A DNA stretch of 59,501 bases, from the IMG/VR virus record IMGVR_UViG_3300039098_000024, positions 1-59,501 of that record; one strand, given 5' to 3'. The position numbers and the translations under genes are program-made. The DNA is from a virus. Below are positions 8,561-51,370 of this stretch, in pieces; the first letter of the stretch is position 1, and the number at the start of each line of letters is the position of its first letter. The notes below the pieces were generated by a model. The model did no database searches. It was not told the origin of the DNA and saw nothing but the letters and a program-made list of their open reading frames with translations.

Positions 8561-11067
8561 TGAGTGTATATAGAAAAGGTGCAAGTGGCCTTAAAAAGAC
8601 AGCAGGTAACTTAGTACAACGAATTAACAATAGAATACTTACAACCACACATACAGTAGTAGACAATAAAGATTACTACACGATAGACGTGACGGCCAAG
8701 AAGTATATATTGTCGTTAACAGATTTAACAGAATTCTTACTATACTTTGATGCAGCGAATGAAACTGATACTGTATACATTGTGTACGAAGGTAAGACAT
8801 TATTGTTAAAACGAAGTGACGGTGATAGCATAGCTATTGGTGCATTGTTTAGACGATTAAATGTGTACACTATAGACACTGCAACAAACGAGATATGGAT
8901 GGACTCACTACTACAACCAACACCTGATAGCTTTAGAGGTACGTTTACGTACGCTTTAAACACATGGGTTGCTGGTGATATAAGTACTCCATTACTAAAT
9001 CAAACAGCAGTAGCTATGGACACTAACATGACTTATCTATACGATGGAGCAGCTTGGAATGAGACTGGACTAATAGACGACCCAAACACTGGTGAGGTGG
9101 TTGAACCACTAAACGGATGGTATTGGATGGTAAGTGTATTCCCAGACTATGACGACGGTGCAGGTAAAATTGTATGGAACGGCGGTAGAGACGACTGGGA
9201 CATATTCTTAGAGAATACTTCTAGACCAGACGAGTATACTCTTGTTACCGACCCAGGGACTAACAAATTTAGTGTTAATATAATAGGCTTACTTGAGAAG
9301 ACAGTGCCGAATGCAGCAGACATACTAAGTTTTGCAGATAGTGAAGACAGTAATATACTTAAACGTATCACACTTAGTAATCTGTTAACTGCAGCTGGTG
9401 GATCTACTGGAATGTGGATCGACGAAGCAGTCCTACCTAGTGGTAGCGGTGCAAGTGGCACACCATATATTATAACTAATGCGAAAGAATTGGCATGGGT
9501 TGCAAAACAAGTAAACGTTGACCAAGCTGCTGGTTGGAGTGAGAATACATATTTCACTCTTCAAAATGATATAAGTTTACTATTCAAGGAATGGACACCA
9601 ATTGGAACAAGTGCTAAACCATTCAAAGGTATATTTACACAACAGACAGCTATGATAGTAAATGGACTTACTATTATTGGGACAGATGTAACCTCCGACG
9701 TAGGTTTATTTGGTAATGTAGGTGCATCAAGTGTAAAAACAAAACTTCCAATAATTCACTTTAAAAATGTATACATAAACGTCGAGAACCAGTATGGTGC
9801 TTCAGACGTAGGTGCATTAGTTGGAGAGACAAATGAGTACTTCTTATTTGAAGCGAGTGCTCCAGATATATATACCGTAGAAGGTGTAATATTAGGTGGA
9901 AGTAATGTAGGTGGACTAGTAGGTAAACATACAAACGGTCAAGTTATGAATGCTCATAATAAAGCCTATGTACGAGGAAATAATACTAGTGTAGGCGGAG
10001 TAGTAGGTTCAGTAAGTGGATCAACCTCTGATTGTATAAACGAAGGAACTATAATTAACAGAACAAGAACTGGCTTAAGCTATAAAGGTTTTGTAGGTGG
10101 TATCGCTGGTACAGGAGACAATATATCTAACTGTACGAATTTAGGTAGAGTTCATGGTGAAGGAAGTTACTTCACAGGAGTAGGCGGTATTGTAGGTTAC
10201 TGTGGCGCACATACAATCTTGAATTGTAGCAACCATGGTGATGTATCTTTAGAGGGTACTGGAGCAACTAAAATCGGTGGCTTAATTGGGTATACTTCAA
10301 GTAGCTCAAGTGTCATAGAAAATTCATATAGTGTTGGAGTAATAACTTCAACAGTTACTACAGCTTACGGGTTAGATGGTACTAATATTGCTACAATCAC
10401 AAATTCATTTTACTTAGACTATACAGTAAATGGTGGTTCAGAAAATACTACTCAGACTAAGACGTTAGGCGAATTAACAACTGTGGTTACTGATGCGAGT
10501 TGGAGTACAGTAGTTTGGACAGAGAGCGTTAAACTCACTGGTTTTAACTTTCCACTACAAACAGCATTCTTAAATATAGGACTAGTACAATCACCATATA
10601 TCGAAGCTAGATTTAGTGCTTATAATAAAAAAGAAGTACTATGTAACTTAGTTGTAGATGTCTCAGCATCAGCACCATTCTTAATAACACCGGCAGACAC
10701 ATATGTCAACATAGACAACCCTATGCATTTAATTTATAACTCTGGGGAATTCTCATATAACGACACAACAAAAGAGATAACTTATAGCGGCAGAGAAAAG
10801 AGGATTGTGCACGCAGACGCAAGTATGACGATGGAAGCTGCGTCTTCAAGCAACCAAATAATAACTGCAACGTGGGTGGTAAATGGTGTAGAGATAGACG
10901 AAGACTTTATTGCAAAAAGAAAGATGGGAAACCCGGACGACGTAGGTAACTTTACTGGTGTTGGTGTAGGCTTAATATACCCTGGTGACACTATGAAAGT
11001 TATGATTAAATCAACAGCTCCAATTACTACTAATTTCTATATGTCGTTTAGAGTTATAGCTAAGTAA
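8560..11067 (+). CDS. Tail fibre/receptor-binding protein with GLUG-type repeats (835 aa)
   Basis: ATG at 8560 (TAATG overlap, SD AAGGAGG). At least 7 repeats of the (V/I)GG(L/I/V)(V/I/A)G type: VGLFGNVG, VGALVGET, VGGLVGKH, VGGVVGSV, VGGIAGTG, VGGIVGYC, IGGLIGYT. Confidence 0.7.
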   Translation: MSVYRKGASGLKKTAGNLVQRINNRILTTTHTVVDNKDYYTIDVTAKKYILSLTDLTEFLLYFDAANETDTVYIVYEGKTLLLKRSDGDSIAIGALFRRLNVYTIDTATNEIWMDSLLQPTPDSFRGTFTYALNTWVAGDISTPLLNQTAVAMDTNMTYLYDGAAWNETGLIDDPNTGEVVEPLNGWYWMVSVFPDYDDGAGKIVWNGGRDDWDIFLENTSRPDEYTLVTDPGTNKFSVNIIGLLEKTVPNAADILSFADSEDSNILKRITLSNLLTAAGGSTGMWIDEAVLPSGSGASGTPYIITNAKELAWVAKQVNVDQAAGWSENTYFTLQNDISLLFKEWTPIGTSAKPFKGIFTQQTAMIVNGLTIIGTDVTSDVGLFGNVGASSVKTKLPIIHFKNVYINVENQYGASDVGALVGETNEYFLFEASAPDIYTVEGVILGGSNVGGLVGKHTNGQVMNAHNKAYVRGNNTSVGGVVGSVSGSTSDCINEGTIINRTRTGLSYKGFVGGIAGTGDNISNCTNLGRVHGEGSYFTGVGGIVGYCGAHTILNCSNHGDVSLEGTGATKIGGLIGYTSSSSSVIENSYSVGVITSTVTTAYGLDGTNIATITNSFYLDYTVNGGSENTTQTKTLGELTTVVTDASWSTVVWTESVKLTGFNFPLQTAFLNIGLVQSPYIEARFSAYNKKEVLCNLVVDVSASAPFLITPADTYVNIDNPMHLIYNSGEFSYNDTTKEITYSGREKRIVHADASMTMEAASSSNQIITATWVVNGVEIDEDFIAKRKMGNPDDVGNFTGVGVGLIYPGDTMKVMIKSTAPITTNFYMSFRVIAK

Positions 11068-21491: not shown

Positions 21492-24400
21492 ATGGCAACA
21501 GTAAACAGAACTAGACCAACGGCTACCGAAGCGTCAGACATTAGAGCGCAACGTGGTACTGGTCAGTTAGAGTCGGTTAACAGTTATTTAAAGAACACTG
21601 ATCCGACTAGTTATTTTTATAAGAAATTTAAAAGCGAGAACAATGAGTTCTTGCGTGACGACTTCTGGTCAGAAGCAGCTACTCGTGGTGAGTCGCAAGA
21701 TATGGCTAGTTTGTTAGAAGCAAGCAAAGACAAAGGGTTCTCTAGAGAGGCAGTAGATATTGTATCAGGGTATGAAGGTAGGGCAGACTACGACAGTTAC
21801 ATGTTAGCTCTTCAAACACCTCACTTAGATAATACTACTAAGAAAGAACGACTTGGCGATAATGATTATAGCTTCGGTGAGTACACTGACCAAGAGTGGG
21901 CTACAGAAATATTAAAACGTACGACTGCTCGTTGGGATGCTGAAATTGTTCAAGCTGATAAAGACAGACGAAATTGGTTCACTAAGACTGGCGCTCAAGT
22001 AGTTAGTCAAGTTGGTAATTTTACTGGTGCAATTTTAAACTTCACTGGTGACGTATACAACTTAGAAGAAGGTTTATTTAATATGTTATTTAACTGGTCA
22101 GGCGATGCAAATGCCGGTGACCGGTTTTTACATGCTTTTGACAATGACGACAAGTTCTCAGGTAACCCTTGGGCTAAAGTAGGCGATTGGTTGACTAAAG
22201 CTACTTTTGAATTCCAAAAGAATTATGCTAATGGCGTAGACGCAGTAGATGCATTTGACGAAGGGTACAGACTGGGCGATGGACCAAATTGGATTGCTCA
22301 GATAGCTAACTCGTCAGGTGAAGGTACAGGTACCAATTGGTGGGGTACAGTGAGTAATGGTATATCACAAGCAATCGGTTATATGGTACCAACTATCGCA
22401 CTAGCATACTTTACAGGTGGAGCAAGTACTACCGGTACTGCAATTAGTGCAGGTGCTAGATCAGCATTATTCTATAGTGGTATATTCTCGGGTATGGTTA
22501 AAGATAGTGTAACTACTGCATCATTAAATGGTGTTAGTTATAAAGACTTAAATGCTGGTAAAGTAGTAGCACAAGCAGGACTTAAAGCAGCAGCTCAATA
22601 CGCTGTTGAAAAAGGTCTGGGAATGTTAATAGGCTTTACTGCAATTGATAGAGGTATAGGTACCGCTGGTAGTGATATAGCTAGTGAAGCTGCTACTAAA
22701 GCTGCAGCAAGCTTAGCTACTAAAACTGGTTGGAGAGCAGGAGCTGCAGTAGCTGCACGCTTTACTAAAGAAGCACTCAAAGAAGGTCTAGAAGAGACTT
22801 TCCAAGAATTGTCAGATAGTTTCATTGACGAAGCATTCGACGGACGATTTGGTGTAGACGTAACAATACAAGAACTAGTAGACGCATTTGTAATAGGTGC
22901 ATTAACTTCTTATACTATGGGGTTAGCAGGTAATGTTAAAACATTCTTACCAGGTACTATTAAAACAAATAAGAAGACTGGCGAAGTAGTATCAAACCGT
23001 GGAGTTACTATAGACAAAAAAGGAAAGACTGCCTTTATGGGTGCTTTCCAAACTATGAACTTAAATGAGTCTATGAGACTTATGAACGACCATATGGGCG
23101 TTATTAACGATAATAAATCAAGTATAGAAAAGAAAGCTAAATCTATGTTCTCTATGAACGCAGCGATGGCAATACTTGGTGACGTGTACGCGACTATGGG
23201 CACTGAGCGTAGTGCAAAGGCTGATGCTATGGTTAGTAAGATGGTAGCTAGTAATAATAAGAAAACTCAGCTGAAAGCATTAAATACTAATACTAAATAT
23301 AGTAATGAGTTATGGCAGAATTTATACAAAGTTCAGAGTGGAGCAAACATAGCACACGTTAAGACGTTAGAAAAGAAAGTAAAAGATGCTATAAAGAAAC
23401 GTAGCAAACTACTTAAATCGAAACAAGTAACTAAGCTAGATAATATTGTTACAACAACTACTAAGCTAGACGAGACTAACTCAGACCTTGAAGCAGATAC
23501 ATACGCTGTATTACAAGAGATGCTAACTAAGACTGATATTAAAGTATTAGTTGGTGTAGATGGTGCGACAGTAGCTAGTTCAGACGACGTAGCTTTTGTT
23601 AACAATAAATTAATCAAGAGTGGTGATATTCCAACAATAATTAAAGGTTTAGCATACGATAAGAGTGTTAAAGCAGTTGAAGCAAATTTAACACCTAGAC
23701 AATCGAAACTAGTGCTACATTCATACAATAAAATAACTGGTACTAACGGAACAATAAACCAAGCTATTACTGCATTGTTATTTGACAAACAGTTTTACGG
23801 CTATATGCTATTAAAAACTAGTGAAGCTAAATATAAAACAAGTGGTGATAAAGCAGCGGCTATAAATATCTTAATGAAGATAGACCAACTAATTACTGGC
23901 AAGCTATCACCGTACGTGGCAGCAGGTACTGTAGGGTTAGACCAGAAAGCATATATGACCTTATTAAAGAAAGTGCAAGAGAACATGCGTTCTGGACTAG
24001 TAACATTTGCTACACAATATGCATTTGTAGATGTCGGTGCAATAGATAATGCTATACTACCTAAAGAACTTAAAGATGCTATTAACGCACATAGGAATGT
24101 TATATTCACTAAGTTGATAAACAAGATAACTAGTGACAAGAGCAACAAAGTTCCAAATGCTGAACGTATAGCAATGTTTGATAAAGAGTTAGACAAACAT
24201 AAAAGTGACTCAGACTTAACCTCACAGAAAATTAAAGCACTTAAAGAGAATGCTAGATCTACTGATTATCTTAGACGACTTGATGCAGGTATCAGTTTAA
24301 ACTTTTATGCTAAACGCTCTGGTTCGTATAAAGAGAAAACAACCTTCTTAGAAACAGACCCATTCAATGCTAGTGCTTTAAATGCTATAGCACATGTTGA

Positions 24401-27400
24401 AAATGTATTCGGTGTTGGGTTTGACGACTTAATAAATGGTACATTCAGTCCATTAGATATAAACCCAGAAATAAATAAAAGTGTTTATGCATTAGATAAC
24501 TACCAAGATCGGCTAGCTGCTATACGAGAAGTATTATTCAACTCGTCTGCTAAAGCGTATACATTAGGGTATGATGGTAAGCTATTAGAAGTATTAGATA
24601 AAGATACCTTTATACAAGATAAATATCTAGGCGACCAACAGAAGTTTAAAAATGACTTTAAAGCTAAACAAAAAGCTGGTAAAGATTTTACATTACAAGA
24701 TATTAGTAAGATTGATTTAGCTGCCGATACTAAGACTAAATTCTTAAGTGAAACAAAAGTAATAATAAAACCAGGTGCTTTGAAAGCAGGTACTAACAAC
24801 CATTATGACGAAGACACAAATACTATAATACTACGTGGTACTGACATTAATAATGTAGTAATGCACGAAGTAACACACGCTACTCAGTTTAGCTTAATGG
24901 GCTATGACAATGATAGTGTTGTATATGGTGGAGCACCGGCAATGTTCGATATTCTACCTGACGACGTACAAGCAGATCTAACTGACTATATAAAAACTAA
25001 CTTGCCATTGTCGTATGAATTGTTGAAAGACCCAGACGGTAAGAACTACTACTTTGCTTACTTTATGTTAGCGGGTGAGATTGAAGCTAACTCTAGTTTA
25101 ACAGCATTTATGTTCGAGACTGGCTTTAGATGGAAGGACGATAGACAAACCTTAGTATCACCTAACGACAACAATAGAACTTGGCCTATGGCACCTGATG
25201 CTACTAAAGAGGCGGCACGTGATAAAGGCAACTTACAGAAGAAAGCTAAGCAATACCAGAAAGCACAAGACACACCACTAGTTAGAGAAAAGCAGAAAGC
25301 CTTAAAGAATAAAAAATCTGTACAGACTTTTATGAAAGATGGCTTCTTACAAACTAAGTCAGGTGTGCCACTAGTAATGTATAGAGGTGCTGGACAAGAA
25401 GGTGCTCAACAACATGAAGGACATATATTCTTGACAAGTAGTCCACAGATAGCTAGCGCTTATGCAGGCGGTACTAGTGCATCAACTAATTCATATGTAG
25501 GTTGGATCTCTAATCTACAAAAAGACGATGTATATGTTATTGACGGTAAAGGCAAATCATTTGACGACTTACGTTTCAAAGGTATGGCATTAAGTACAGA
25601 CAACGCAGTTAAGTGGGTACAAGAGAATACTACTAAGAAAGCTGTGTTAATTAAAAATGTAGTAGAGGCTGATTATATTGAAACTAAGCCCGCGCATGAC
25701 TTAATTATATTTGATACTGCATACGATACTATGAAACGAGTTACTATGGAAGATAATGGCAAGTTCATTAAAAATTGGACTGACAAATTAAACAGAAATG
25801 ACTTTGAACAATATAATGGTAGACGAGTAGATAGTGAACAATTTTATAATTACGTTACTGCTCTTAGTACTAGTGCAACTAACGTCGCTGAGGATGCAGC
25901 TATACCAACCACTGGCCGATATATAAATAACAAGGTGGCTAGTACTTCTAATCTTAAGTATAGAATTAGAAAAGGTATACAAATTCAAGTGAATGATAAT
26001 GTAGCTAACTTCATTGTTGCTACTACTAAAGATTTCGCTAAACTACCGAAGGTACTTAAAGACAGTATTAAAAGTGGTAAAACAACATACTACGATATAA
26101 GTAAATATGTAGCTACTACTAAGTCTATGAATGACTATACGTTTAAAGCAATAGCTAAGTATTTCTACAACAATGAGCAACTTGCTAAAACTACATATAG
26201 TGCTATGCGTAGTCTATTGTCAAATATAGAAGAGTTGTCAACACTATCATATATGGTACCAGCCGAATATCAACATAAACAAATCACACCTGCGAACATG
26301 ACTAAGTTGTTAATCAAGACATTAAGTGATGCTGACACTGATACTACTATAGCTAAGAGCTATACTAAGTATATGAAACGCTCTCAAACGGTTATGATAA
26401 AGACTGATGCTGGTAAGGTAGCATTTATAGACAATCAACATGCTGATGCTAAACAACTTAATACTGCAGTCTTCCTACATTATGATGGGACGCTACGTGG
26501 TATGAGAAGTATTAATGCTATTGGTAAATATATGTCGTTTAAACAAAATGATATATACAATAAAGATACTAACTGGGTACAAGGAATACGTACTGCTACT
26601 ACTGACTACGAACAAGATATTGATATAAGCGAAATGTTAGATACTGTTACTAGACAAGAAAAATTAAATACTATCAACAACTATGTAGCTAATGCATTAA
26701 TCGCGAAAGTTGAGAAACTACCAATTGCTGAAAGGAAAGTTAAAGGTCCTAAAGTAATGGCAGAACTTAGACGTATAATGAGTAAGATGGCTGGCTACGA
26801 CGAGACAACAATTAATAAACGATACTTAGCTGCTCTTAGTAATGAGAACGCTAAGACTCAACCTATTGAAAATATTGTTAAACCTTTGAGCGAGCAACCT
26901 AGATCTACTAAGAACCTTAAAGACCATATACGTGAGAGAGCTAGTAGAGTAACTGAACGTATCGGTGGACTTAAACGTAGATACAATAAAATGCCAGACT
27001 CTATTAAAGCAGTAATTGATCCTAAGACCTACAAGCTTACTAAGACTTATCAATCTATGAGTGACCAAGACTTATTATCATTGTTAGTTGATATGAAAGA
27101 AACTGCTAAACAACTTAGTAGTATTATAGGTGAGCAAGAACTTAGACAGCAGAAAGTCAGAATTGAAAAAGCTAGATTAGACCGAGTAGCTAAACGTGAA
27201 ACTACAACTAAGACAGACAAGAGGAGTTTACGTGAGAAGCTTAAGTATGTTCACACAACTAAAGTAATTAACCAGACATTCGAATTTGAAAGTAGAGATG
27301 CTATAACTAAGAGCGCTACTGAGATGCTGAATACTCAATGGGGTAAACAGCGTATGTCGACCGTCAAGGGTGTATCAAATAATAGACAGCAGAATGTCCA

Positions 27401-29702
27401 TAATGGTGAAGTATTCTTTAAGAACAATGCCAACACTTTAATGGACATGACTACTGCAGAAGCTGAGGCAACAGCTAAGTGGTTTATGGATGCTAATATG
27501 ACTGGTATTGCTGGTGATAGCACAGAGACTCAAACCTTTGCAGCAGTTAAGATGTACTTCTTAGGTTATGTATTGTCTGAGATAAAAGATGGTGGTCAAT
27601 TCTATAAGTTTAACGCGAACGTTAAGAGTAGAATTAATAATAACCTTAAAGGACAAGTAACCGCCGCAGGTACTGCACTATCAGTATGGAAGAACTTAAA
27701 GACTTTCATTAACCCGATAGAAGCTATGAAAGCAGCCGACATGGAAATAGCAGGAGTGTTACTTACAGCTGACGAGAAAAACATATTGTTAGATGCAGCT
27801 AAGAAAGGTAACATGGAAGACATAGCGAAAGCACAAGCGACTATTATAAACAGAGTTAACCAAGAGAAGACAAGTAAGAAAGGTATATTGCGTAAGATAA
27901 CTATGTTACGATCTATGTCAATGTTGACTGGACCACCTACGTGGTTACGTAACAAAATATCAAACTTTATGCTTAAGCGACTAAACAAAATATCTAGCAA
28001 AATAGGTGACAAAGTCTTCACTGAGAAATCAGTAGCCGGACAGTTTAAAATGAATGGTAAAGTTACTACTGAAATTCAGGACTACATAGACAAACACTTT
28101 ATCGACAATAAACTGTTCGATACCATTGTAAGTAATCTGTCTAAGTATAATCCTAGCGATATTCAAAGGCGTTTTAAAGATGCTACAGGTGTTGCTAATA
28201 AAGATGCATTATTTGCTAACATGGTTATTAAGTCAATGTACAACCAATACTATAACCAAAGTATGTTCGACAATAAAATTGTTAATAAGTATCACCAATT
28301 CTTAATGAAAGTATTGTCAGATAATAACTACGTGCGTGAAGCAGCTATTAGGTACTTCGGTAAAATAATGGCAGAGCGTGGTTATTCATTACAAGGAGAC
28401 GTAGTAAGTGACGATATAATGAGTGACTTTGCAACGGCTATTGGTATGGGTATGAAAGACTATATGCACTCAGACAATAAATTCAACGAGTTTGAAACAA
28501 TGTTGGCTGGAGTTAACGAAGAGTTATTATTTGCATATAAGCTGATATTACCTTTTGGAGCAGCTCAATGGAATTGGTTTAAAGCTGCTGTAACATATAG
28601 TCCATTAGGACTAATGAACAGTATACGTAGACTAACCAAGTTAGAAGCCCAAATAACGAAAGCAGAAACTAAGTGGGCAGAAGGTACTGCACAAGTACCG
28701 CCAGAAATGACCGAGTACTTAATTAGACGTGACGTAGGGTCAGGTGTGATAGGAACGATGGCAGTACTCTTTGGAATGTTGTTAGCAGCAACTGGTAAGA
28801 TAGCCTTAGACGACGACGATTACGGAACACCTAAATTACGAATAGGTAGTGTAGACTTTGATGTCGCTACTATATTCGGCTCTAGTTCAGTACTAGCCGG
28901 TGCAGCACTAATTAAAGGCTGGGGAGAAAATGGTAAGTTAGTAGAAGGCTTAGACGCAATGGCTGGTCCATTGTTAGACGGGTTCTTCCTGACTCAGATA
29001 TTAGAGCTAGACCAATATAACAATGGCGGCTGGGTATCATGGGGTATTGGTTATGGTGAACAAACAATGTTATCATTCATACCTAATGGTTTAAGATGGC
29101 TGTCAGGTGCAAGTGCTACTGGTTCATTTAAGCCAGACAATGTATTTGAAAGAGCAGTAGCTAGATTACCATTCTTAGGTAGTGCCTTTGGTGTCAATAA
29201 GAAAGTTAATCCATATACTGGAGACGAAGGTGACTTATGGGATGCGTTCAATAGAATAGTACCTTTTGTAGAAGTACGAAATATAAGTAGTCTTGAAGAG
29301 AAGTCTAGAGCGCTTGGTATCAATAAAGATCAGTTACGTGGCAAGTACACAATCAATGGTGAAGCATTTGATTTAACAGCTACTCAGACTGCTGAACTCA
29401 ATAGACAATATGGTAATTGGAATGCTATTGCATTAACTGAGTTCTATAATAGTTCGTCAATGCATAGAGTATTGACTGAGCATGATACTTTTGCAACACT
29501 TAGGTATTCTCAAATGACTGAAGAACAACGAGCACGAACTGTTGGAAGTATAATGACTAAGAACAGTACATACGCTAAGATACAAGCATGGTTGAAAGAT
29601 GGTAATAAATACTATGCAAGTGATAGCGAATATGCTACTCTAAAGAAGTTAGGTATCACTGGTTTATTATATAATGGATCACAAGGCTTTGTAGCCAAAT
29701 AG
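21492..29702 (+). CDS. Giant internal virion/ejection polyvalent protein (2736 aa) with a zincin HExxH motif
   Basis: One uninterrupted 8.2-kb ORF with SD AAAGGAGAG. Hydrophobic segments near residue ~300 and near the C-terminus. NVVMHEVTHATQF metalloprotease motif. A possible ART-like VMYRG...FLTSS stretch follows. Confidence 0.75.
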   Translation: MATVNRTRPTATEASDIRAQRGTGQLESVNSYLKNTDPTSYFYKKFKSENNEFLRDDFWSEAATRGESQDMASLLEASKDKGFSREAVDIVSGYEGRADYDSYMLALQTPHLDNTTKKERLGDNDYSFGEYTDQEWATEILKRTTARWDAEIVQADKDRRNWFTKTGAQVVSQVGNFTGAILNFTGDVYNLEEGLFNMLFNWSGDANAGDRFLHAFDNDDKFSGNPWAKVGDWLTKATFEFQKNYANGVDAVDAFDEGYRLGDGPNWIAQIANSSGEGTGTNWWGTVSNGISQAIGYMVPTIALAYFTGGASTTGTAISAGARSALFYSGIFSGMVKDSVTTASLNGVSYKDLNAGKVVAQAGLKAAAQYAVEKGLGMLIGFTAIDRGIGTAGSDIASEAATKAAASLATKTGWRAGAAVAARFTKEALKEGLEETFQELSDSFIDEAFDGRFGVDVTIQELVDAFVIGALTSYTMGLAGNVKTFLPGTIKTNKKTGEVVSNRGVTIDKKGKTAFMGAFQTMNLNESMRLMNDHMGVINDNKSSIEKKAKSMFSMNAAMAILGDVYATMGTERSAKADAMVSKMVASNNKKTQLKALNTNTKYSNELWQNLYKVQSGANIAHVKTLEKKVKDAIKKRSKLLKSKQVTKLDNIVTTTTKLDETNSDLEADTYAVLQEMLTKTDIKVLVGVDGATVASSDDVAFVNNKLIKSGDIPTIIKGLAYDKSVKAVEANLTPRQSKLVLHSYNKITGTNGTINQAITALLFDKQFYGYMLLKTSEAKYKTSGDKAAAINILMKIDQLITGKLSPYVAAGTVGLDQKAYMTLLKKVQENMRSGLVTFATQYAFVDVGAIDNAILPKELKDAINAHRNVIFTKLINKITSDKSNKVPNAERIAMFDKELDKHKSDSDLTSQKIKALKENARSTDYLRRLDAGISLNFYAKRSGSYKEKTTFLETDPFNASALNAIAHVENVFGVGFDDLINGTFSPLDINPEINKSVYALDNYQDRLAAIREVLFNSSAKAYTLGYDGKLLEVLDKDTFIQDKYLGDQQKFKNDFKAKQKAGKDFTLQDISKIDLAADTKTKFLSETKVIIKPGALKAGTNNHYDEDTNTIILRGTDINNVVMHEVTHATQFSLMGYDNDSVVYGGAPAMFDILPDDVQADLTDYIKTNLPLSYELLKDPDGKNYYFAYFMLAGEIEANSSLTAFMFETGFRWKDDRQTLVSPNDNNRTWPMAPDATKEAARDKGNLQKKAKQYQKAQDTPLVREKQKALKNKKSVQTFMKDGFLQTKSGVPLVMYRGAGQEGAQQHEGHIFLTSSPQIASAYAGGTSASTNSYVGWISNLQKDDVYVIDGKGKSFDDLRFKGMALSTDNAVKWVQENTTKKAVLIKNVVEADYIETKPAHDLIIFDTAYDTMKRVTMEDNGKFIKNWTDKLNRNDFEQYNGRRVDSEQFYNYVTALSTSATNVAEDAAIPTTGRYINNKVASTSNLKYRIRKGIQIQVNDNVANFIVATTKDFAKLPKVLKDSIKSGKTTYYDISKYVATTKSMNDYTFKAIAKYFYNNEQLAKTTYSAMRSLLSNIEELSTLSYMVPAEYQHKQITPANMTKLLIKTLSDADTDTTIAKSYTKYMKRSQTVMIKTDAGKVAFIDNQHADAKQLNTAVFLHYDGTLRGMRSINAIGKYMSFKQNDIYNKDTNWVQGIRTATTDYEQDIDISEMLDTVTRQEKLNTINNYVANALIAKVEKLPIAERKVKGPKVMAELRRIMSKMAGYDETTINKRYLAALSNENAKTQPIENIVKPLSEQPRSTKNLKDHIRERASRVTERIGGLKRRYNKMPDSIKAVIDPKTYKLTKTYQSMSDQDLLSLLVDMKETAKQLSSIIGEQELRQQKVRIEKARLDRVAKRETTTKTDKRSLREKLKYVHTTKVINQTFEFESRDAITKSATEMLNTQWGKQRMSTVKGVSNNRQQNVHNGEVFFKNNANTLMDMTTAEAEATAKWFMDANMTGIAGDSTETQTFAAVKMYFLGYVLSEIKDGGQFYKFNANVKSRINNNLKGQVTAAGTALSVWKNLKTFINPIEAMKAADMEIAGVLLTADEKNILLDAAKKGNMEDIAKAQATIINRVNQEKTSKKGILRKITMLRSMSMLTGPPTWLRNKISNFMLKRLNKISSKIGDKVFTEKSVAGQFKMNGKVTTEIQDYIDKHFIDNKLFDTIVSNLSKYNPSDIQRRFKDATGVANKDALFANMVIKSMYNQYYNQSMFDNKIVNKYHQFLMKVLSDNNYVREAAIRYFGKIMAERGYSLQGDVVSDDIMSDFATAIGMGMKDYMHSDNKFNEFETMLAGVNEELLFAYKLILPFGAAQWNWFKAAVTYSPLGLMNSIRRLTKLEAQITKAETKWAEGTAQVPPEMTEYLIRRDVGSGVIGTMAVLFGMLLAATGKIALDDDDYGTPKLRIGSVDFDVATIFGSSSVLAGAALIKGWGENGKLVEGLDAMAGPLLDGFFLTQILELDQYNNGGWVSWGIGYGEQTMLSFIPNGLRWLSGASATGSFKPDNVFERAVARLPFLGSAFGVNKKVNPYTGDEGDLWDAFNRIVPFVEVRNISSLEEKSRALGINKDQLRGKYTINGEAFDLTATQTAELNRQYGNWNAIALTEFYNSSSMHRVLTEHDTFATLRYSQMTEEQRARTVGSIMTKNSTYAKIQAWLKDGNKYYASDSEYATLKKLGITGLLYNGSQGFVAK

Positions 29703-47628: not shown

Positions 47629-48345
47629 CTATTCTGCGTCTTGTGCCATAAAAGCTGCTAGTAAATCTTGAGCGTGACTAATTTTCTTAGCTGTACGCTT
47701 AAGTGTTCTTGCTTCTTTTTGTTCGTCAGTTAATTTCGCACGAACTGCTTTCGGAGCATTAGCTTTAGCTTCTACAGATATAGCTAATAGTTCGTTGTAT
47801 CTGTCGTACTGAGTTTCGTCAAATACTTCTAACCAGTTACTAGGACCAGTAGCCATAGTAATCGATCTGCCTTCTTGAAGAGCAGTGATGTATTCTTGAA
47901 GTTGTTCTGGGTTCATGTCTTCAGGTTTAATTTTCTTGCTTCCTGCTTTTAGTTCTTTGTAAGTAGCTACTGCTGTTTCTACTAACTCAGTGTACTCAGC
48001 TGCTTCTGCTTCGTTAAGATATTTAACGATGCCAGCTTTAACACCACTAGCTCCTAAAATTCTAGGTGCACTTGTTTTAACTTCTACTTCTACAAAACCT
48101 TCTTCATTTACTGAAGTGTTGAATAGTTGTTCACTGAAGTATTTTCTGTTACAGATGTTACCTTTTGGTAGAATGATCCAAGGTTTGCCATCAGGGTTAG
48201 CTTCATTAGCTTTAGACTTTTCAATCCAAACATGTAGAAGTTCTGCCTCAGCGCCTTCTTCAGCTACGAATAGGTATTTGCCAAGTTCTTTTACGTTTTC
48301 TTCCGTTGCAGTGTATTCTGCGTTTACATAAATTCTTGCGTTCAT
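47629..48345 (-). CDS. Hypothetical acidic protein (238 aa), co-oriented with and directly downstream of the RNA island
   Basis: SD GGAGG, intact ORF, followed by an A-run/hairpin/T-run at about 47575-47610. Confidence 0.7.
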   Translation of the reverse strand: MNARIYVNAEYTATEENVKELGKYLFVAEEGAEAELLHVWIEKSKANEANPDGKPWIILPKGNICNRKYFSEQLFNTSVNEEGFVEVEVKTSAPRILGASGVKAGIVKYLNEAEAAEYTELVETAVATYKELKAGSKKIKPEDMNPEQLQEYITALQEGRSITMATGPSNWLEVFDETQYDRYNELLAISVEAKANAPKAVRAKLTDEQKEARTLKRTAKKISHAQDLLAAFMAQDAE

Positions 48346-48433
48346 TTTAGTACCTCCATGTACTGTTGCCCTTTCAGGTATCTACAGGGTAATTTACCTT
48401 ATTGTAACCAACGTCTAGCGGACGAGTTGGTAT

Positions 48434-48528
48434 TGGCGGGTAAGGCAGGGTTCGAACCTACGACCTCTTACTTGACGGAGTGTATACCGTTCTTACCGTA
48501 AGTGCTCTTCCAACTGAGCTACTTCCCC
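48434..48528 (-). tRNA. tRNA-like gene (95 nt, encoded CCA) with 26 nt between the anticodon-stem strands
   Basis: Acceptor GGGGAAG/CTTACCC (one G-A mismatch). D-arm GCTC-AGTTGGAA-GAGC. Stem CTTAC...GTAAG encloses GGTAAGAACGGTATACACTCCGTCAA. Variable loop AGGTC. T-arm GTAGG-TTCGAAC-CCTGC. Confidence 0.55.
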
Positions 48529-48861
48529 ACGATTGTCCGCTGTGCTCATAGGTATAAACAACAGACAAAATGCCTTTCAAGTTTATTGCTAGAAACTTGA
48601 ACGCGACTAATCTACACTAGCATGCGGTGGTTGACAGTACATAATATACATGTCTTACAAGCGGGCACGTTACCCTAACCACTTTCTTAACCCGTAAAGC
48701 AGATCGAGCTATAAGCCTCTCTTCTACTATTTGGCTGCGACTTTCCTAACTAAATAGGGGCGCTTTGCATTTAAACTATCACATACCTATACCGAGATAG
48801 TACCCTCTTTACGGTCAACCTTTACTCATAAAAGTTGCCTACACTCTATTGCTAGAGCGAT
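48529..48861 (-). ncRNA. Candidate structured non-coding RNA of unknown class (333 nt) between the tmRNA and the tRNA-like gene
   Basis: No ORF of 60 aa or more on either strand. A 7-bp helix capped by a GCAA tetraloop (48842-48859). A 9-bp hairpin TTCAAGTTT/AAACTTGAA (48576-48601). Short RNase P-like strings. Confidence 0.4.
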
Positions 48862-49176
48862 TGGTGGACCTGACGGGGATTGAACCCGTGTCCAGCCACG
48901 ACCTATTAACTAATCTTTATTACACTCATTTTGCGTTTCTAACTTCCACCAGATAGTTTACTTGAACCATCAAAGCCAGTAGTTTATGCATACTACCAAA
49001 CGTTCTTCGTCTCTTACGCGAATGCTCTTACTGAAGGGGTAAAAGCGTCACGGACTGCTCCAAGCAGACTGTTGATTATGTTTTTTGCATTTATTTGTTG
49101 TGATACTTTTAGAGCAATGTATCATTGCTGAGTGAATTAGTTAACGGTTTGCAACTGTCGAAACCAATGCAAGCCC
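48862..49176 (-). ncRNA. ssrA: tmRNA (transfer-messenger RNA), 315 nt
   Basis: 5' GGGCUUGCAUUGGUUUCGACAG and 3' GGACACGGGUUCAAUCCCCGUCAGGUCCACCA match the conserved tmRNA ends. Acceptor stem has G3:U70. Internal tag frame GCA...UAA at 49088-49014. Confidence 0.85.
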
Positions 49177-49305
49177 ATATTGGAAGAAACTCAAACTTAT
49201 ATTTTTTCATAAGTATATTATTTCTTCCGATATTATATTATATACGGAAACGGTCGGAATATTTCACTATTTTTATACCTTTTTTAACTTAACGTTTATT
49301 TGAGA

Positions 49306-50256
49306 TTACTTAGGCCAAATAACATTACCGTCTATGTCAAAACTAGGTAGACCGTACTCACCAGCCAAGAACTTGTCATAAGATAGTACCTGCCTGCCAG
49401 CAATTCTGTTGTTGTGTCCTAACAATGTATTTACATAAGCCCATGCCCACTCATTATACGTCCATAGACCTTCAAAGAAGTCGTCGTACGATATAAAGTA
49501 GAAGTCGCATATACGGTTAGCCCAGTGCTGTGCATCCTTGCTGTTGTCTACAGTGTTATACTCTTTCATAAACCAGTCCCATCTTAGTTTCTCAGGGTGG
49601 TGTGGACGTTTCATAGCTACTGTGTACTGGCGAGCATCTCGTTGTTGTGCTATACCAGTTCGCTTGTCCACTTGCTCTCTTGCTCTAACTGTAATAGTCT
49701 TAGCAAAGTGAGTCGTACGTGGGTTGAATATCATGTTGACGTCACGTATCAGTGTATCGCCATGACCATCACTACTAGCATGAGTTCTAATAAAGGCTTG
49801 GAATTGTCTTCTAGCATACCCAGCTGTGTCTTTATTATAGTGTACACGCTTAGTACCCTTATCAGACCTAGTCTTAGTCACTACATGTGACTTACCTTTA
49901 TCAGTACGCATCTTACGACCGCTAGGATGTACACCTAATGACTTTAACTGGTTTAATAATACATCCACTGACTCTTGGTCATTCTTAGCTATCTTTCCTA
50001 CTATCGCTACTCGTCTCAATAGTTGTTGACCACCAACAATAGATTTAAATCGTTCGGGGTCAGCCAATCCTATTTCAGACATGGTCTTAGGGTATAGTGA
50101 GTCAGTACCTTCAGCGTCTTTAAAGTCACAATAGATTACTTCACTGTCTGGTTCTCTATCACTAGGCGGGTCTACATTCTCACAATGTTGTACCATCGTG
50201 TACCCATCACCTACAATGTCTCCACCACATTTAGGACATGTTCCATATTCGTCCAT
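49306..50256 (-). CDS. Zinc-ribbon plus basic-domain protein (316 aa)
   Basis: CPKC N-terminus; duplicated R(T/S)DKG(K/T) basic motifs; SD GGAGGTG. Confidence 0.7.
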   Translation of the reverse strand: MDEYGTCPKCGGDIVGDGYTMVQHCENVDPPSDREPDSEVIYCDFKDAEGTDSLYPKTMSEIGLADPERFKSIVGGQQLLRRVAIVGKIAKNDQESVDVLLNQLKSLGVHPSGRKMRTDKGKSHVVTKTRSDKGTKRVHYNKDTAGYARRQFQAFIRTHASSDGHGDTLIRDVNMIFNPRTTHFAKTITVRAREQVDKRTGIAQQRDARQYTVAMKRPHHPEKLRWDWFMKEYNTVDNSKDAQHWANRICDFYFISYDDFFEGLWTYNEWAWAYVNTLLGHNNRIAGRQVLSYDKFLAGEYGLPSFDIDGNVIWPK

Positions 50257-50263
50257 TACTTCT

Positions 50264-50494
50264 TCACCTCCAATTTATATAGTCTTTACGTGCTTGGTCA
50301 TACTCTTCTTTATGAACTTCACTATATTCTTTAGCATCATACTTAGCTATTTCGCACTCTCGTGTAGTAAGTTCATAGCCGTTACAAGCTGAACCACAAT
50401 GGTCACAAAACTTAGTACTATTATACTGACTAGCATAATGGGTACTGTCTACTGTTTTACAAGTTGGACATACATATGTTAAGTTATCTAACAT
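50264..50494 (-). CDS. Zinc-ribbon protein (76 aa)
   Basis: CPTC...CDHC; SD GGAGGTG. Confidence 0.65.
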   Translation of the reverse strand: MLDNLTYVCPTCKTVDSTHYASQYNSTKFCDHCGSACNGYELTTRECEIAKYDAKEYSEVHKEEYDQARKDYINWR

Positions 50495-50913
50495 TACTTC
50501 TTCACCTCCAATCTTTCTTTGAATGCTTTAACTCGCTTGTTCACTATAGGCGACAGGTCTCTTACATTGTCGTATACCCTGTTCTTGTATGGCTCACCCG
50601 TGTACTCATTTACTATGGTCTGTAAGCTAGTGTCGATAAACCCTGGGTTTAAGAACTTGTGTCTTACTGAGTTAAACTCCTTGTATGCCCACCACTCCTG
50701 TTGTAGACCCTTACGTTTCTTTCTAAGTCTGACTAATTCTTTTACTACCTTCCAGTCTCTAGTAGGGTGTAAGTGTTCAGCCTCTTCTAGGAAGTGTAGT
50801 ATATCACTTAGTGCTAAGTCAGTCTGTGATTGTTCCTGTGCTACTTCTTCTTGTCTAGCATCAATACGCTTCAATGTAGTACCTGCGCTAGTAATTAATT
50901 CCATCATGTCCAT
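50494..50913 (-). CDS. Hypothetical protein (139 aa)
   Basis: ATG at 50913 overlaps the upstream stop (TAATG), about 10 nt after GGAGG. Confidence 0.6.
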   Translation of the reverse strand: MDMMELITSAGTTLKRIDARQEEVAQEQSQTDLALSDILHFLEEAEHLHPTRDWKVVKELVRLRKKRKGLQQEWWAYKEFNSVRHKFLNPGFIDTSLQTIVNEYTGEPYKNRVYDNVRDLSPIVNKRVKAFKERLEVKK

Positions 50914-51170
50914 TACTCCCATACCTCCTTAGTTACTCTCTTAGCAAATACATTTAGTTCGTGAGTGTTCATAGCAATACCATCGTCGTTAGTAAACTGG
51001 TAACCTTTACCCCATGCTGTTGAGAAGAATACTCGATTTACTTTATACTTCTTACCTTTAGTAACACTTAAGTACTCTTCAGGTTCAGACATTATTATGT
51101 GCAACCTCTTGCCTTCTTTTATAATTGGTGGGTCTAGTCTAACTGCGTCAAACGCATCCATGTCCATCAT
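50913..51170 (-). CDS. Hypothetical protein (85 aa)
   Basis: ORF with ATGA-type coupling. Confidence 0.6.
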   Translation of the reverse strand: MMDMDAFDAVRLDPPIIKEGKRLHIIMSEPEEYLSVTKGKKYKVNRVFFSTAWGKGYQFTNDDGIAMNTHELNVFAKRVTKEVWE

Positions 51171-51370
51171 TACTTCACCTCCCTGTAATCTACTATGAAT
51201 GTATGTACATTAAACTCTACATTAAACCATTCATTAGTATAATCCTTAGGTGTGTTTTGTTTGGCTAATTCTTTTGTTGAGAATACACCATGCACATTGG
51301 TTTGTGTGCCTCTAACATAATCATGACTGTGCTTGTTACACATTACGACGTATACTCTGTTCTCTTCCAT
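51170..51370 (-). CDS. Hypothetical protein (66 aa)
   Basis: ATG at 51370 after GGGAGG, overlapping the upstream stop (TAATG). Confidence 0.55.
   Translation of the reverse strand: MEENRVYVVMCNKHSHDYVRGTQTNVHGVFSTKELAKQNTPKDYTNEWFNVEFNVHTFIVDYREVK

Follow-up and report, generated by a model that had tools for sequence, protein, structure and literature searches.

Genes for transfer-messenger RNA (tmRNA; ssrA) are known from phages of several kinds. The 2014 list of phage ssrA genes comprised eight mycobacteriophages together with phage G and DS6A (PMC4131195), and in 2021 tmRNA was reported in 402 of 18,146 deposited phage genomes, about 2.3% (PMC9004378). Huge phages carry tmRNA, sometimes with SmpB (PMC7162821), and siphophage and podophage isolates of Bradyrhizobium elkanii carry it without tRNAs (PMC12656738). 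The benefits proposed for phage tmRNAs are that hijacked ribosomes are kept circulating and amino acids are recycled (PMC9004378, PMC7162821, PMC12656738); for marine myophages, the proposed roles are the sustaining of hijacked translation and the tagging of proteins for recycling (PMC9004378). A phage tmRNA of the DS6A type, consisting only of the tRNA-like domain (TLD), has also been described (PMC4131195, PMC11915505), and it inhibits host tmRNA (PMC4131195). The commonest length of bacterial tags is 10 amino acids (PMC11915505). In Mycoplasma, which lacks ClpXP, ClpAP, and Tsp, the tag ends in AFA in place of ALAA (PMC3985003), and degradation through the long tag is Lon-dependent, which has been tied to the loss of ClpXP, ClpAP, and Tsp (PMC3985003, PMC8138137). 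Here, we analyze a tmRNA gene with a 24-codon, AFA-ending tag on the minus strand of IMG/VR virus record IMGVR_UViG_3300039098_000024, of which the whole stretch from position 1 to 59,501 is referred to as the window. An earlier note on this DNA regarded phage tmRNA genes as known mainly from a few mycobacteriophages and huge phages, a view that is out of date given the deposited-genome survey and the reports on huge phages and Bradyrhizobium phages cited above: phage tmRNAs, including long-tagged ones, are already established as an uncommon accessory gene. Its description of AFA endings as typical of Mollicutes agrees with the Mycoplasma data.

ARAGORN and Rfam model RF00023 independently gave the same ends for the gene, and these are the ends that had been proposed from the letters alone (Table 1). 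The Rfam match covers the identical 315 nucleotides (nt) and runs end to end over model positions 1-374 with 86.5 bits, thereby exceeding the curated gathering score of 47 over the full model (E = 3.3e-32, and 5.9e-34 in a local search). The tag peptide called by ARAGORN, AKNIINSLLGAVRDAFTPSVRAFA*, is identical to the earlier translation from GCA at 49088 over 24 codons to a UAA ending at 49014. Both mature ends (5' GGGCUUGCAUUGGUUUCGACAG, 3' GGACACGGGUUCAAUCCCCGUCAGGUCCACCA) can be read directly from the sequence, together with the predicted 7-bp acceptor stem, its G3:U pair, the discriminator A, and the CCA. In addition, the RNA folds more stably than 100 out of 100 dinucleotide-preserving shuffles. 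The tmRNA is confirmed, far beyond chance. A TLD-only decoy of the mycobacteriophage DS6A type was ruled out by the full mRNA-like domain with its 24-codon open reading frame (ORF), and an ssrA-derived attP fragment was ruled out because the gene is full-length and no integrase or recombinase was found among ORFs of at least 100 amino acids (aa). We consider it probable that this phage encodes a functional one-piece tmRNA, which was acquired horizontally with a neighboring tRNA-like gene and works by trans-translation on host factors.

The TLD is complete, comprising the acceptor stem, G3:U70, the discriminator A, the CCA, a T-arm with a UUCRANN loop, and a D-loop analogue within nt 8-19 that has the required form GGNUUCGAC. 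When only the acceptor stem and the T-arm were imposed as constraints, the fold reached -82.8 kcal/mol versus -83.0 kcal/mol for the minimum free energy (MFE) structure, i.e. 0.2 kcal/mol above the unconstrained optimum, and it displayed the canonical tmRNA layout. Covariation was assessed in an alignment of 15 tmRNAs, namely that of the window, 11 from phages, and 3 of the Lachnospiraceae type. Nine H2a pairs occur there in 3-6 standard pair types each, the window forming eight of the nine pairs, and the T stem also covaries. The G3:U pair, which in the acceptor stem is the identity pair for AlaRS, is invariant. In the mRNA-like part, the context of the resume codon is of a kind also present in three other viral loci, L229, L347, and L268 (AAAUAAA[U/C] followed by GCA or GGA). 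The first pseudoknot (PK1) can be drawn as an H-type pseudoknot, its S2 being aligned by the Rfam model without mismatch and its S1 having been paired by hand; our automated search for H-type pseudoknots used maximal stems only, and PK1 lies outside its reach. The inverted repeat at nt 110-122 was also flagged on the plus strand by a terminator scan.

Table 1 Features of the tmRNA locus in the window, in order from the mature RNA to its surroundings (nt, position in the tmRNA).
Feature	Coordinates	Strand	Evidence and details
One-piece tmRNA gene, 315 nt, CCA encoded	48862..49176	-	ARAGORN, Rfam RF00023, fold z = -2.27
Acceptor stem 5' strand GGGCUUG, nt 1-7	49170..49176	-	7/7 pairs with nt 305-311; G3:U, U5:G
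Helix H2 5' strand, nt 20-46, after D-loop analogue UGGUUUCGAC	49131..49157	-	Constrained fold, covariation
PK1, nt 47-75	49102..49130	-	S1 AGCAA/UUGCU 47-51/59-63, S2 UGAUAC/GUAUCA 52-57/70-75, L3 CUAAAA
Resume-codon context AAAUAAAU, U at -5, A at -4	49089..49096	-	Matches Rfam consensus AAUAAuU followed by GCa
Tag frame, 24 sense codons, AKNIINSLLGAVRDAFTPSVRAFA, resume codon GCA at 49088	49017..49088	-	ARAGORN, translation
Hairpin CUGCU-UGG-AGCAG, nt 110-122, inside ORF	49055..49067	-	Rfam helix 5 position; folds
13-bp interrupted hairpin, nt 125-160, ending one nucleotide before UAA	49017..49052	-	MFE and centroid folds
Tag stop codon UAA	49014..49016	-	ARAGORN, constrained fold
Three plain hairpins, nt 165-179, 180-199, 206-225, in PK2-PK4 place	48952..49012	-	Folds
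Helix H2 3' strand, nt 249-283	48894..48928	-	Rfam, constrained fold, covariation
T-arm ACGGG-UUCAAUC-CCCGU, nt 288-304	48873..48889	-	Rfam posterior probability '*'; stem covaries
Acceptor stem 3' strand CAGGUCC, nt 305-311, then discriminator A and CCA, nt 312-315	48862..48872	-	Sequence, constrained fold
Candidate -10 region, two overlapping TATAAT at 49242-49232, 56-66 nt upstream of mature 5' end	49232..49249	-	Weak, by eye
Non-coding insertion, 961 nt, with tmRNA and tRNA-like gene	48346..49305	-	Between o238 (47629-48345) and o316 (49306-50256)
Aberrant tRNA-like gene	48434..48528	-	Co-oriented, 333 nt downstream of tmRNA; Rfam tRNA 48 bits

The scans of IMG/VR, made with a complete 5' TLD pattern (9 loci), a complete refined 3' pattern (84 loci), and a looser pattern, revealed no close relative of the window tmRNA among the matches listed. 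They gave a set of one-piece tmRNAs that have long tags and the acceptor stem of the window, including those of L230 (ANFVKNTIAKIKNFFAPSNQLALAL), L229 (GNLFTKISNKVKSLFAFNCVAFA), L347 (ANSIKNKIANFFRGFGAQRVAALA), L409 (AKSIFNKIANFFRGFGAQRVAALA), L400 (AKSVNLAAVAAMNAPRAFALV), L375 (AKIINLFRGSRSVAMAA), L420 (AKQKLAQVVTFAKNLFAPAMEPQLMAA), and the L365 group (GINKALSNFFGFAEEMPLAA). Seven long-tag viral tmRNAs, L229, L230, and L347 among them, score 70-113 bits with Rfam. These metagenomic phage tmRNAs share the resume context of the window as well as its acceptor stem, their tags have 17-27 codons and mostly start with A-[K/N], and their charge is positive in most cases (-1 in L365). The tmRNA of L230 is likewise short (310 nt). 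Nevertheless, RNA identity with the window outside the TLD is only about 52%, and the C-termini diverge, with ALAL, AALA, AMAA, and PLAA among them. The genomic settings vary: the tmRNAs of L229, L230, L365, L397, L400, and L404 lie amid 5-27 tRNA genes on contigs of 59-230 kb, those of L347 and L371 are on contigs of 20-23 kb, and those of L409 and L375 are in stretches with 0-1 tRNA. None of this set occurs in the deposited-phage collection, and the L409 type gave no match to deposited phages.

Several segments of the window tag recur in these tags. The start A-K-x-I-I-N is shared with L375 and L347, the middle DAFTPS resembles NFFAPS of L230 and NLFAPA of L420, and the end VRAFA* resembles PRAFALV* of L400 and CVAFA* of L229. 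The stop-codon context is also similar between the window (UUCGCG-UAA-GA...GAA) and L229 (UUUGCG-UAA-GA...GAA). With BLOSUM62, the window tag aligns locally to that of L230 with a score of 31 (shuffle p = 0.0085) and to that of L229 with p = 0.033, and the L230 and L347 tags align with p = 0.0005. The window tag has a net charge of +2 and a hydrophobic moment of 0.60 over residues 2-15. Indeed, in all four tags tested (window, L230, L229, and L347), the helical hydrophobic moment peaks at residues 2-15 with 0.54-0.63 (p = 0.01-0.07 each) and the net charge is +2 to +4. An amphipathic helix at residues 2-15 is only suggestive, since hairpins in the ORF could impose part of the conservation.

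Closely related pairs of long-tag tmRNAs indicate how these frames evolve. L302 and L393 show 3 differences in the ORF and L365 and L404 show 1, and all four are third-position and synonymous; between L347 and L409, 6/75 positions differ inside the ORF compared to 121/344 outside. Such a pattern would be expected of long frames that are translated and selected as peptides, here in long-tagged phage tmRNAs other than that of the window. Long tags are also frequent: in our sample of viral-contig tags, where one acceptor-stem type is overrepresented and the resume codons are those called by ARAGORN, a length of at least 17 codons is reached by 17 of the 43 unique tags of one-piece tmRNAs and by 26 of the 58 unique tags of two-piece tmRNAs. 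The length of 24 codons, which had been taken as atypical, is therefore typical for phage tmRNAs, and a 25-codon tag is annotated in about 200 mycobacteriophages; only the AFA end is rare (2/43 one-piece and 1/58 two-piece tags). The unusual parts are the AFA ending and the lineage to which the tag belongs. The sample suggests that a large share of phage tmRNAs specify tags about twice the bacterial norm, which we did not find in the literature searched. Among the two-piece viral tmRNA genes, we observed that many have the extended tag ANADTFDFSAMSFTGNTVSGKSKVALAA.

In order to relate the RNA to bacterial tmRNAs, we scanned the bacterial genomes of GTDB with a pattern of the 3' T-arm and acceptor strand. 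The matches listed, at least 120, include 95 tRNA-Ala and nine tmRNAs, and all nine tmRNAs have the CAGGUCC acceptor strand. In the Lachnospiraceae Roseburia and Mediterraneibacter, both halves of the TLD are nearly identical to those of the window, which shares with them GGGCUUG/CAGGUCC with G3:U, a near-identical D-analogue (UGGUUUCGACAG), and GGAC followed by the T-arm. The Lachnospiraceae 5' end, GGGCUUGUAcUGGUUUCGACAG, is almost that of the window, and at the 3' end, Roseburia departs from the window in nothing but the T-loop. Helix H2 and the resume context are as in a standard bacterial tmRNA, with a PK1 that can be drawn. The rest of the molecule differs. The window RNA has 315 nt versus about 340 nt in the Lachnospiraceae type, it is phage-encoded and lacks detectable PK2-PK4, and the central regions show about 50% identity, i.e. 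alignment noise. The Lachnospiraceae-type tags have 9-10 codons, are acidic, and end in LAA, YAA, or IAA (e.g. AEDNLAYAA), whereas the window tag has 24 codons, is basic, and ends in AFA. Among the bacterial matches listed, neither the central region nor the tag of the window matches any tmRNA. Judging from these comparisons, the TLD is Clostridia-like and would be compatible with the AlaRS and SmpB of such a host, and the tag appears to belong to a lineage seen only in metagenomic phages and sharply unlike the tags found in bacteria that have this type of TLD. For this lineage, the sequences suggest tags that are mostly basic and, where tested, amphipathic, unlike same-TLD bacterial tags, which is again not found in the literature that we searched.

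The two RNA genes occupy a non-coding insertion between o238 and o316. We compared the locus with about 100 loci of related phages, anchored on the large terminase (TerL) and including at most 10 kb of flank each. In syntenic relatives, the homologues of o238 and o316 are adjacent, separated by a gap of about 230-700 nt in five loci; in two loci that are more distant, the gap is 1.4-2.4 kb. No tmRNA or tRNA was found in the approximately 100 related loci, either by ARAGORN or by Rfam at gathering thresholds, and the fetched relatives showed no nucleotide similarity to the 961-nt insertion. Because the flanking genes adjoin each other in relatives that have neither such RNA genes nor similarity to the insertion, the tmRNA and the tRNA-like gene are best read as accessory cargo that was horizontally acquired by this phage lineage.

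The tRNA-like gene has a good cloverleaf with a perfect 5-bp anticodon stem, CUUAC/GUAAG, and a G4.A mismatch in the acceptor stem. The anticodon stem encloses 26 nt, including an ACGG/CCGU hairpin, and not a 7-nt loop. ARAGORN called it either as Leu(aag) with a mismatched anticodon stem or as Asp(GUC) with a 19-nt 'intron'; the tRNA-Leu(aag) label was rejected as unreliable, and the 'intron' is shorter than a bacterial group I intron can be. This gene has no relative in any fetched locus. The association with phage tRNA genes is represented here by this one co-oriented, aberrant tRNA-like gene, compared to the arrays of 5-27 tRNAs that surround tag relatives. The tmRNA lies within the early/replication gene block. 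Both RNA genes are co-oriented with the replication and nucleotide-metabolism block, and the gene order suggests early or middle expression of the tmRNA.

Upstream of the mature 5' end, the candidate -10 region is unique in the genome. A sigma-70 consensus scan did not report it, owing to a poor -35, and no recurring promoter motif was found upstream of the tmRNA, the repeat search giving only Shine-Dalgarno and start-codon regions. We also observed by eye that the 5' leader at 49177-49231 (minus strand) can fold into a long hairpin, GGAAGAAA...UUUCUUCC, that contains an inner ACUUAU/AUAAGU stem; the hairpin stops 5 nt before G1 of the mature tmRNA and may be relevant to RNase P processing or transcription control.

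The window represents the complete genome of a phage, about 59.4 kb long with 37.6% G+C, as its first 99 nt recur exactly at its end and the assembly is thus circularly closed. The same genome is found in three public assemblies of one sample (ENA ERZ23495601, NCBI LGVF01677718, and Logan SRR2133847), and the gene caller of the public assembly called nothing between the two ORFs that bracket the tmRNA. It encodes a large terminase, DNA polymerase, primase, helicase, ATP-dependent ligase, exonuclease, and a sigma-factor-like protein, as well as thymidylate kinase, thymidylate synthase, a single-stranded DNA-binding protein, and dUTPase. No integrase, recombinase, SmpB, or protease family was matched by window ORFs of at least 100 aa, and the phage is apparently virulent.

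These properties bear on the suspicion that the gene is not a phage gene at all, the sequence being either a host ssrA at a prophage/host junction, where it would serve as attachment site, or part of an assembly chimera. Such a suspicion is natural, since integration at ssrA is classic and temperate phages can contain fragments of this gene (PMC9004378, PMC12656738), and several of the viral contigs that we scanned have canonical Lachnospiraceae-like tmRNAs with no nearby tRNAs, probably in host flanks. The present contig, however, closes on itself, and the tmRNA lies about 10 kb from either linear end, bracketed by phage genes that are syntenic in relatives. The gene is full-length rather than a 3' fragment, no integrase was found, the same arrangement is seen in an independent public assembly (L002), and the central region and the tag match no bacterial tmRNA among the matches listed. 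The closed genome, the syntenic flanks, and the lack of an integrase rule out a host junction or attachment site, and we regard a non-phage origin of the gene as extremely improbable.

At the DNA level, the window genome has no similarity to deposited phages. Its closest cultured relatives, with 30-32% identity in the terminase and about 25% in the polymerase, infect Bacillota, namely Bacillus, Staphylococcus, Lactococcus, Faecalibacterium, Enterococcus, and Weissella, and strong GGAGG Shine-Dalgarno sequences precede the start codons of the window. On the basis of these two observations, a Bacillota host is likely. A repeated motif of the window, which is the reverse complement of GGAGGTGAAGAAGTAATG and occurs at 50251-50271, 50489-50509, 50908-50928, 51162-51182, and other positions, corresponds to a very strong Shine-Dalgarno sequence at fixed spacing before the starts of small early genes, which fits a Bacillota-type host. 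Hundreds of metagenomic sequences are related to the terminase with 58-75% identity, and many of them lie on contigs of 54-60 kb. One terminase relative (P0024, of the L024 type) has 960 aa and matches Pfam PF05204 and PF14528, which we take to be homing-endonuclease families, suggesting an intein or endonuclease inserted in TerL of a related phage. The window also contains, at 21492-29702 on the plus strand, a single ORF of 2,736 aa without Pfam match, and most proteins of the structural module (439-20745) match neither PHROG nor Pfam families, so that this phage family is poorly charted.

Several observations weigh against a functional tmRNA. No close relative was found in any collection searched: exact 22-32-mers from the 5' and 3' ends had no match in IMG/VR, and megablast and blastn against deposited phages gave only a 31-nt T-arm match. 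The gene is absent from all syntenic relatives and is therefore dispensable for the phage family. Across the central part of the RNA, the Rfam alignment has low posterior probabilities, and PK1 competes with a simple 7-bp hairpin at nt 47-63. Of the PK1-PK4 and tag-region architecture that the earlier note had asked for, a PK1 can be drawn and the resume context is present, while PK2-PK4 were not detectable, the best H-type candidate in nt 160-250 scoring no higher than shuffles (p = 0.44); they appear, in the predicted folds, to be replaced by plain hairpins. As for the tag, a 24-codon frame would stay open by chance in about 1 of 5 cases in such AT-rich RNA, according to a rough composition estimate, its peptide similarity to the other long tags is modest, and part of this similarity could reflect constraints of RNA hairpins rather than peptide function, with the NFF codons falling in RNA stems in L365 and L230.

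Helix 5 of tmRNA normally holds the tag stop codon in its loop, and in the hairpin aligned with it in the window (nt 110-122), UGG takes the place of the consensus UAA stop. If the tmRNA was captured recently and is now decaying or functional only in part, perhaps as neutral cargo, it could have lost this stop and be read for 15 more codons; PK2-PK4 would then be eroded, and the absence of the gene from every relative, the broken tRNA-like gene next to it (26-nt anticodon 'loop', G.A acceptor mismatch), and the low posterior probabilities in mid-RNA would find a common explanation. Nevertheless, all seven acceptor pairs, the T-arm, the D-analogue, the CCA, and the resume context are intact, and the fold is stabler than all shuffles. 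Other phage tmRNAs, in which long tags are under purifying selection, have equally long tags of the same style that share motifs with that of the window, and short, pseudoknot-poor tmRNAs of 255-310 nt recur in the tRNA arrays of other viral contigs. The missing PK2-PK4 are not disqualifying, as PK2-4 are dispensable in vitro and variable in nature (PMC3985003). We thus find decay an unlikely explanation and retain a functional tmRNA as the probable one.

The sequence and structure features needed at each step of trans-translation are present, and no SmpB was detected in the window, in line with the earlier note (tblastn best E = 1.1 with manually entered E. coli and B. subtilis queries); for expression, charging, tagging, and the fate of the product, we infer the course from the established pathway. 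A precursor would be transcribed from the minus strand together with the genes of the replication module and trimmed by host RNase P and 3' exonucleases. Host AlaRS would charge the tmRNA with alanine through G3:U, and host SmpB and EF-Tu would bind the charged molecule, which would enter ribosomes stalled on broken or stop-less mRNAs. Translation would switch to GCA (49088) and terminate at UAA (49016-49014), leaving the ribosome free and the nascent chain with AKNIINSLLGAVRDAFTPSVRAFA at its end. The hydrophobic AFA end, perhaps with the basic amphipathic residues 2-15, would deliver the product to a host AAA+ protease, more likely Lon or FtsH than a ClpXP that reads only LAA. Host shut-off and RNA-targeting defenses yield truncated mRNAs, with which a phage tmRNA could help to cope. 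The benefit would be extra ribosome rescue when infection, host mRNA decay, or such defenses flood the cell with truncated mRNAs, and also when host tmRNA is no longer replenished.

The tag might also serve primarily as something other than a ClpXP degron, marking or re-routing chains toward Lon, FtsH, the membrane, or an inactive state, or else the tmRNA might compete with host tmRNA for SmpB and thereby alter what becomes of rescue products. The AFA end in place of LAA, the pairing of AFA with Lon and not ClpXP in Mycoplasma (PMC3985003, PMC8138137), and the inhibition of host tmRNA by a TLD-only phage tmRNA (PMC4131195) point in this direction. So do the charge of +2 and the moment of 0.60 at residues 2-15, in a pattern repeated in L230, L229, and L347, and the short acidic tags ending in LAA or YAA of bacteria with the same TLD type among the matches listed. 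Nevertheless, related phage tags end in various ways, including the canonical MAA and LAA, so that AFA is not conserved in the lineage, the amphipathicity statistics are individually weak and drawn from sequences that may not be independent, and there is no similarity to Mycoplasma tags. We therefore judge this role quite doubtful as the primary one. Similarly, it is a rather unlikely, broader possibility that the window tmRNA represents a metagenome-only phage lineage whose tags of 17-27 residues, with endings such as AFA, ALA, ALAL, MAA, and LAA, are a phage-specific adaptation and not host mimicry. In that case, chains would be diverted from the ClpXP route, extended tags would characterize phage tmRNAs in general, and the cassette would move between unrelated phages, from those of about 136-230 kb with tRNA arrays to one of 59.5 kb.

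The viral loci retrieved with these scans contain further RNA features. L229 (IMGVR_UViG_3300032038_000012, 135.8 kb) has a match to ornate large extremophilic (OLE) RNA at 5822-6158 on the plus strand (RF01071, 109 bits versus a gathering score of 50), adjoining an array of 23 tRNAs and the long-tag tmRNA, in which model positions 1-616 are covered within only 337 nt. OLE RNA is a Bacillota RNA, and a shortened, phage-borne version would hence be unusual. The same locus has selenocysteine-like calls, an ARAGORN tRNA-SeC (tca) at 8971-9066 and, at 10244-10329, an Rfam tRNA-Sec (49 bits versus a gathering score of 47) that ARAGORN calls tRNA-Ser. A match to the self-cleaving Pistol ribozyme (RF02679, 38 bits versus a gathering score of 34.5) lies at 8700-8759 on the minus strand of L302 (IMGVR_UViG_3300027491_000200), in a phage tRNA/tmRNA array. 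In L227 (6561-6636, minus strand) and L234 (2172-2245, plus strand), tRNAs with a CUA anticodon (ARAGORN 'Pyl', amber suppressors) occur in arrays next to very short tmRNAs of 255 and 276 nt, respectively, which suggests TAG-recoded phages that also carry minimal tmRNAs.

Taken as a single genome feature, the gene is an expected kind of accessory gene. Less ordinary are its pseudoknot-poor structure and its setting, a cassette of two RNA genes that is carried by a virulent phage of 59.5 kb and missing from all relatives of this phage. If functional, it would mean that a small virulent phage imports only the RNA half of ribosome rescue, relying on host SmpB, and that infection is limited by rescue capacity or by which tag is added. 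The old question of whether a phage tmRNA serves ribosome recycling or provides a phage-chosen degron thereby becomes testable. Orthogonal long degrons, e.g. the M. florum tag with Lon, are useful parts in synthetic biology.

Compared with the ssrA tags of Mycoplasma and Mesoplasma, which are Lon degrons, the window tag is similarly long (24 aa) and similarly ends in AFA (VRAFA), but those tags are acidic and Asn-rich, whereas that of the window is basic and hydrophobic. Its alignments with the M. genitalium and M. pneumoniae tags, which were entered manually, score no higher than shuffles (BLOSUM62 p = 0.27 and 0.41), and no similarity was found to the tags of B. subtilis and E. coli. The window TLD is presumably not Mollicutes-like either. 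The two-piece tmRNAs of marine myophages (Melnitz and pelagimyophages) resemble the window in being complete phage ssrA genes without an integrase, and many viral two-piece tmRNAs in our sample are long-tagged as well. They differ in being circularly permuted, in some cases with a glutamine riboswitch, in their proteobacterial affinities, and in tags that mostly end in ALAA. L408 has a mycobacteriophage tmRNA that matches, with 100% identity, the one annotated in Erdmann, Colt, Gizmo, and about 200 other mycobacteriophages. Like that of the window, it is phage-encoded and one-piece, with a long tag (25 codons, ATDTDATVTDAEIEAFFAEEAAALV) and a non-LAA end. Nevertheless, its tag is strongly acidic, with a net charge of -7, and has no sequence relationship to that of the window, the RNA has 435 nt, the host phylum is Actinomycetota, and the setting is a myovirus of about 155 kb with about 30 tRNAs, whereas the tmRNA described here is carried by a 59.5-kb genome with one tRNA-like gene.

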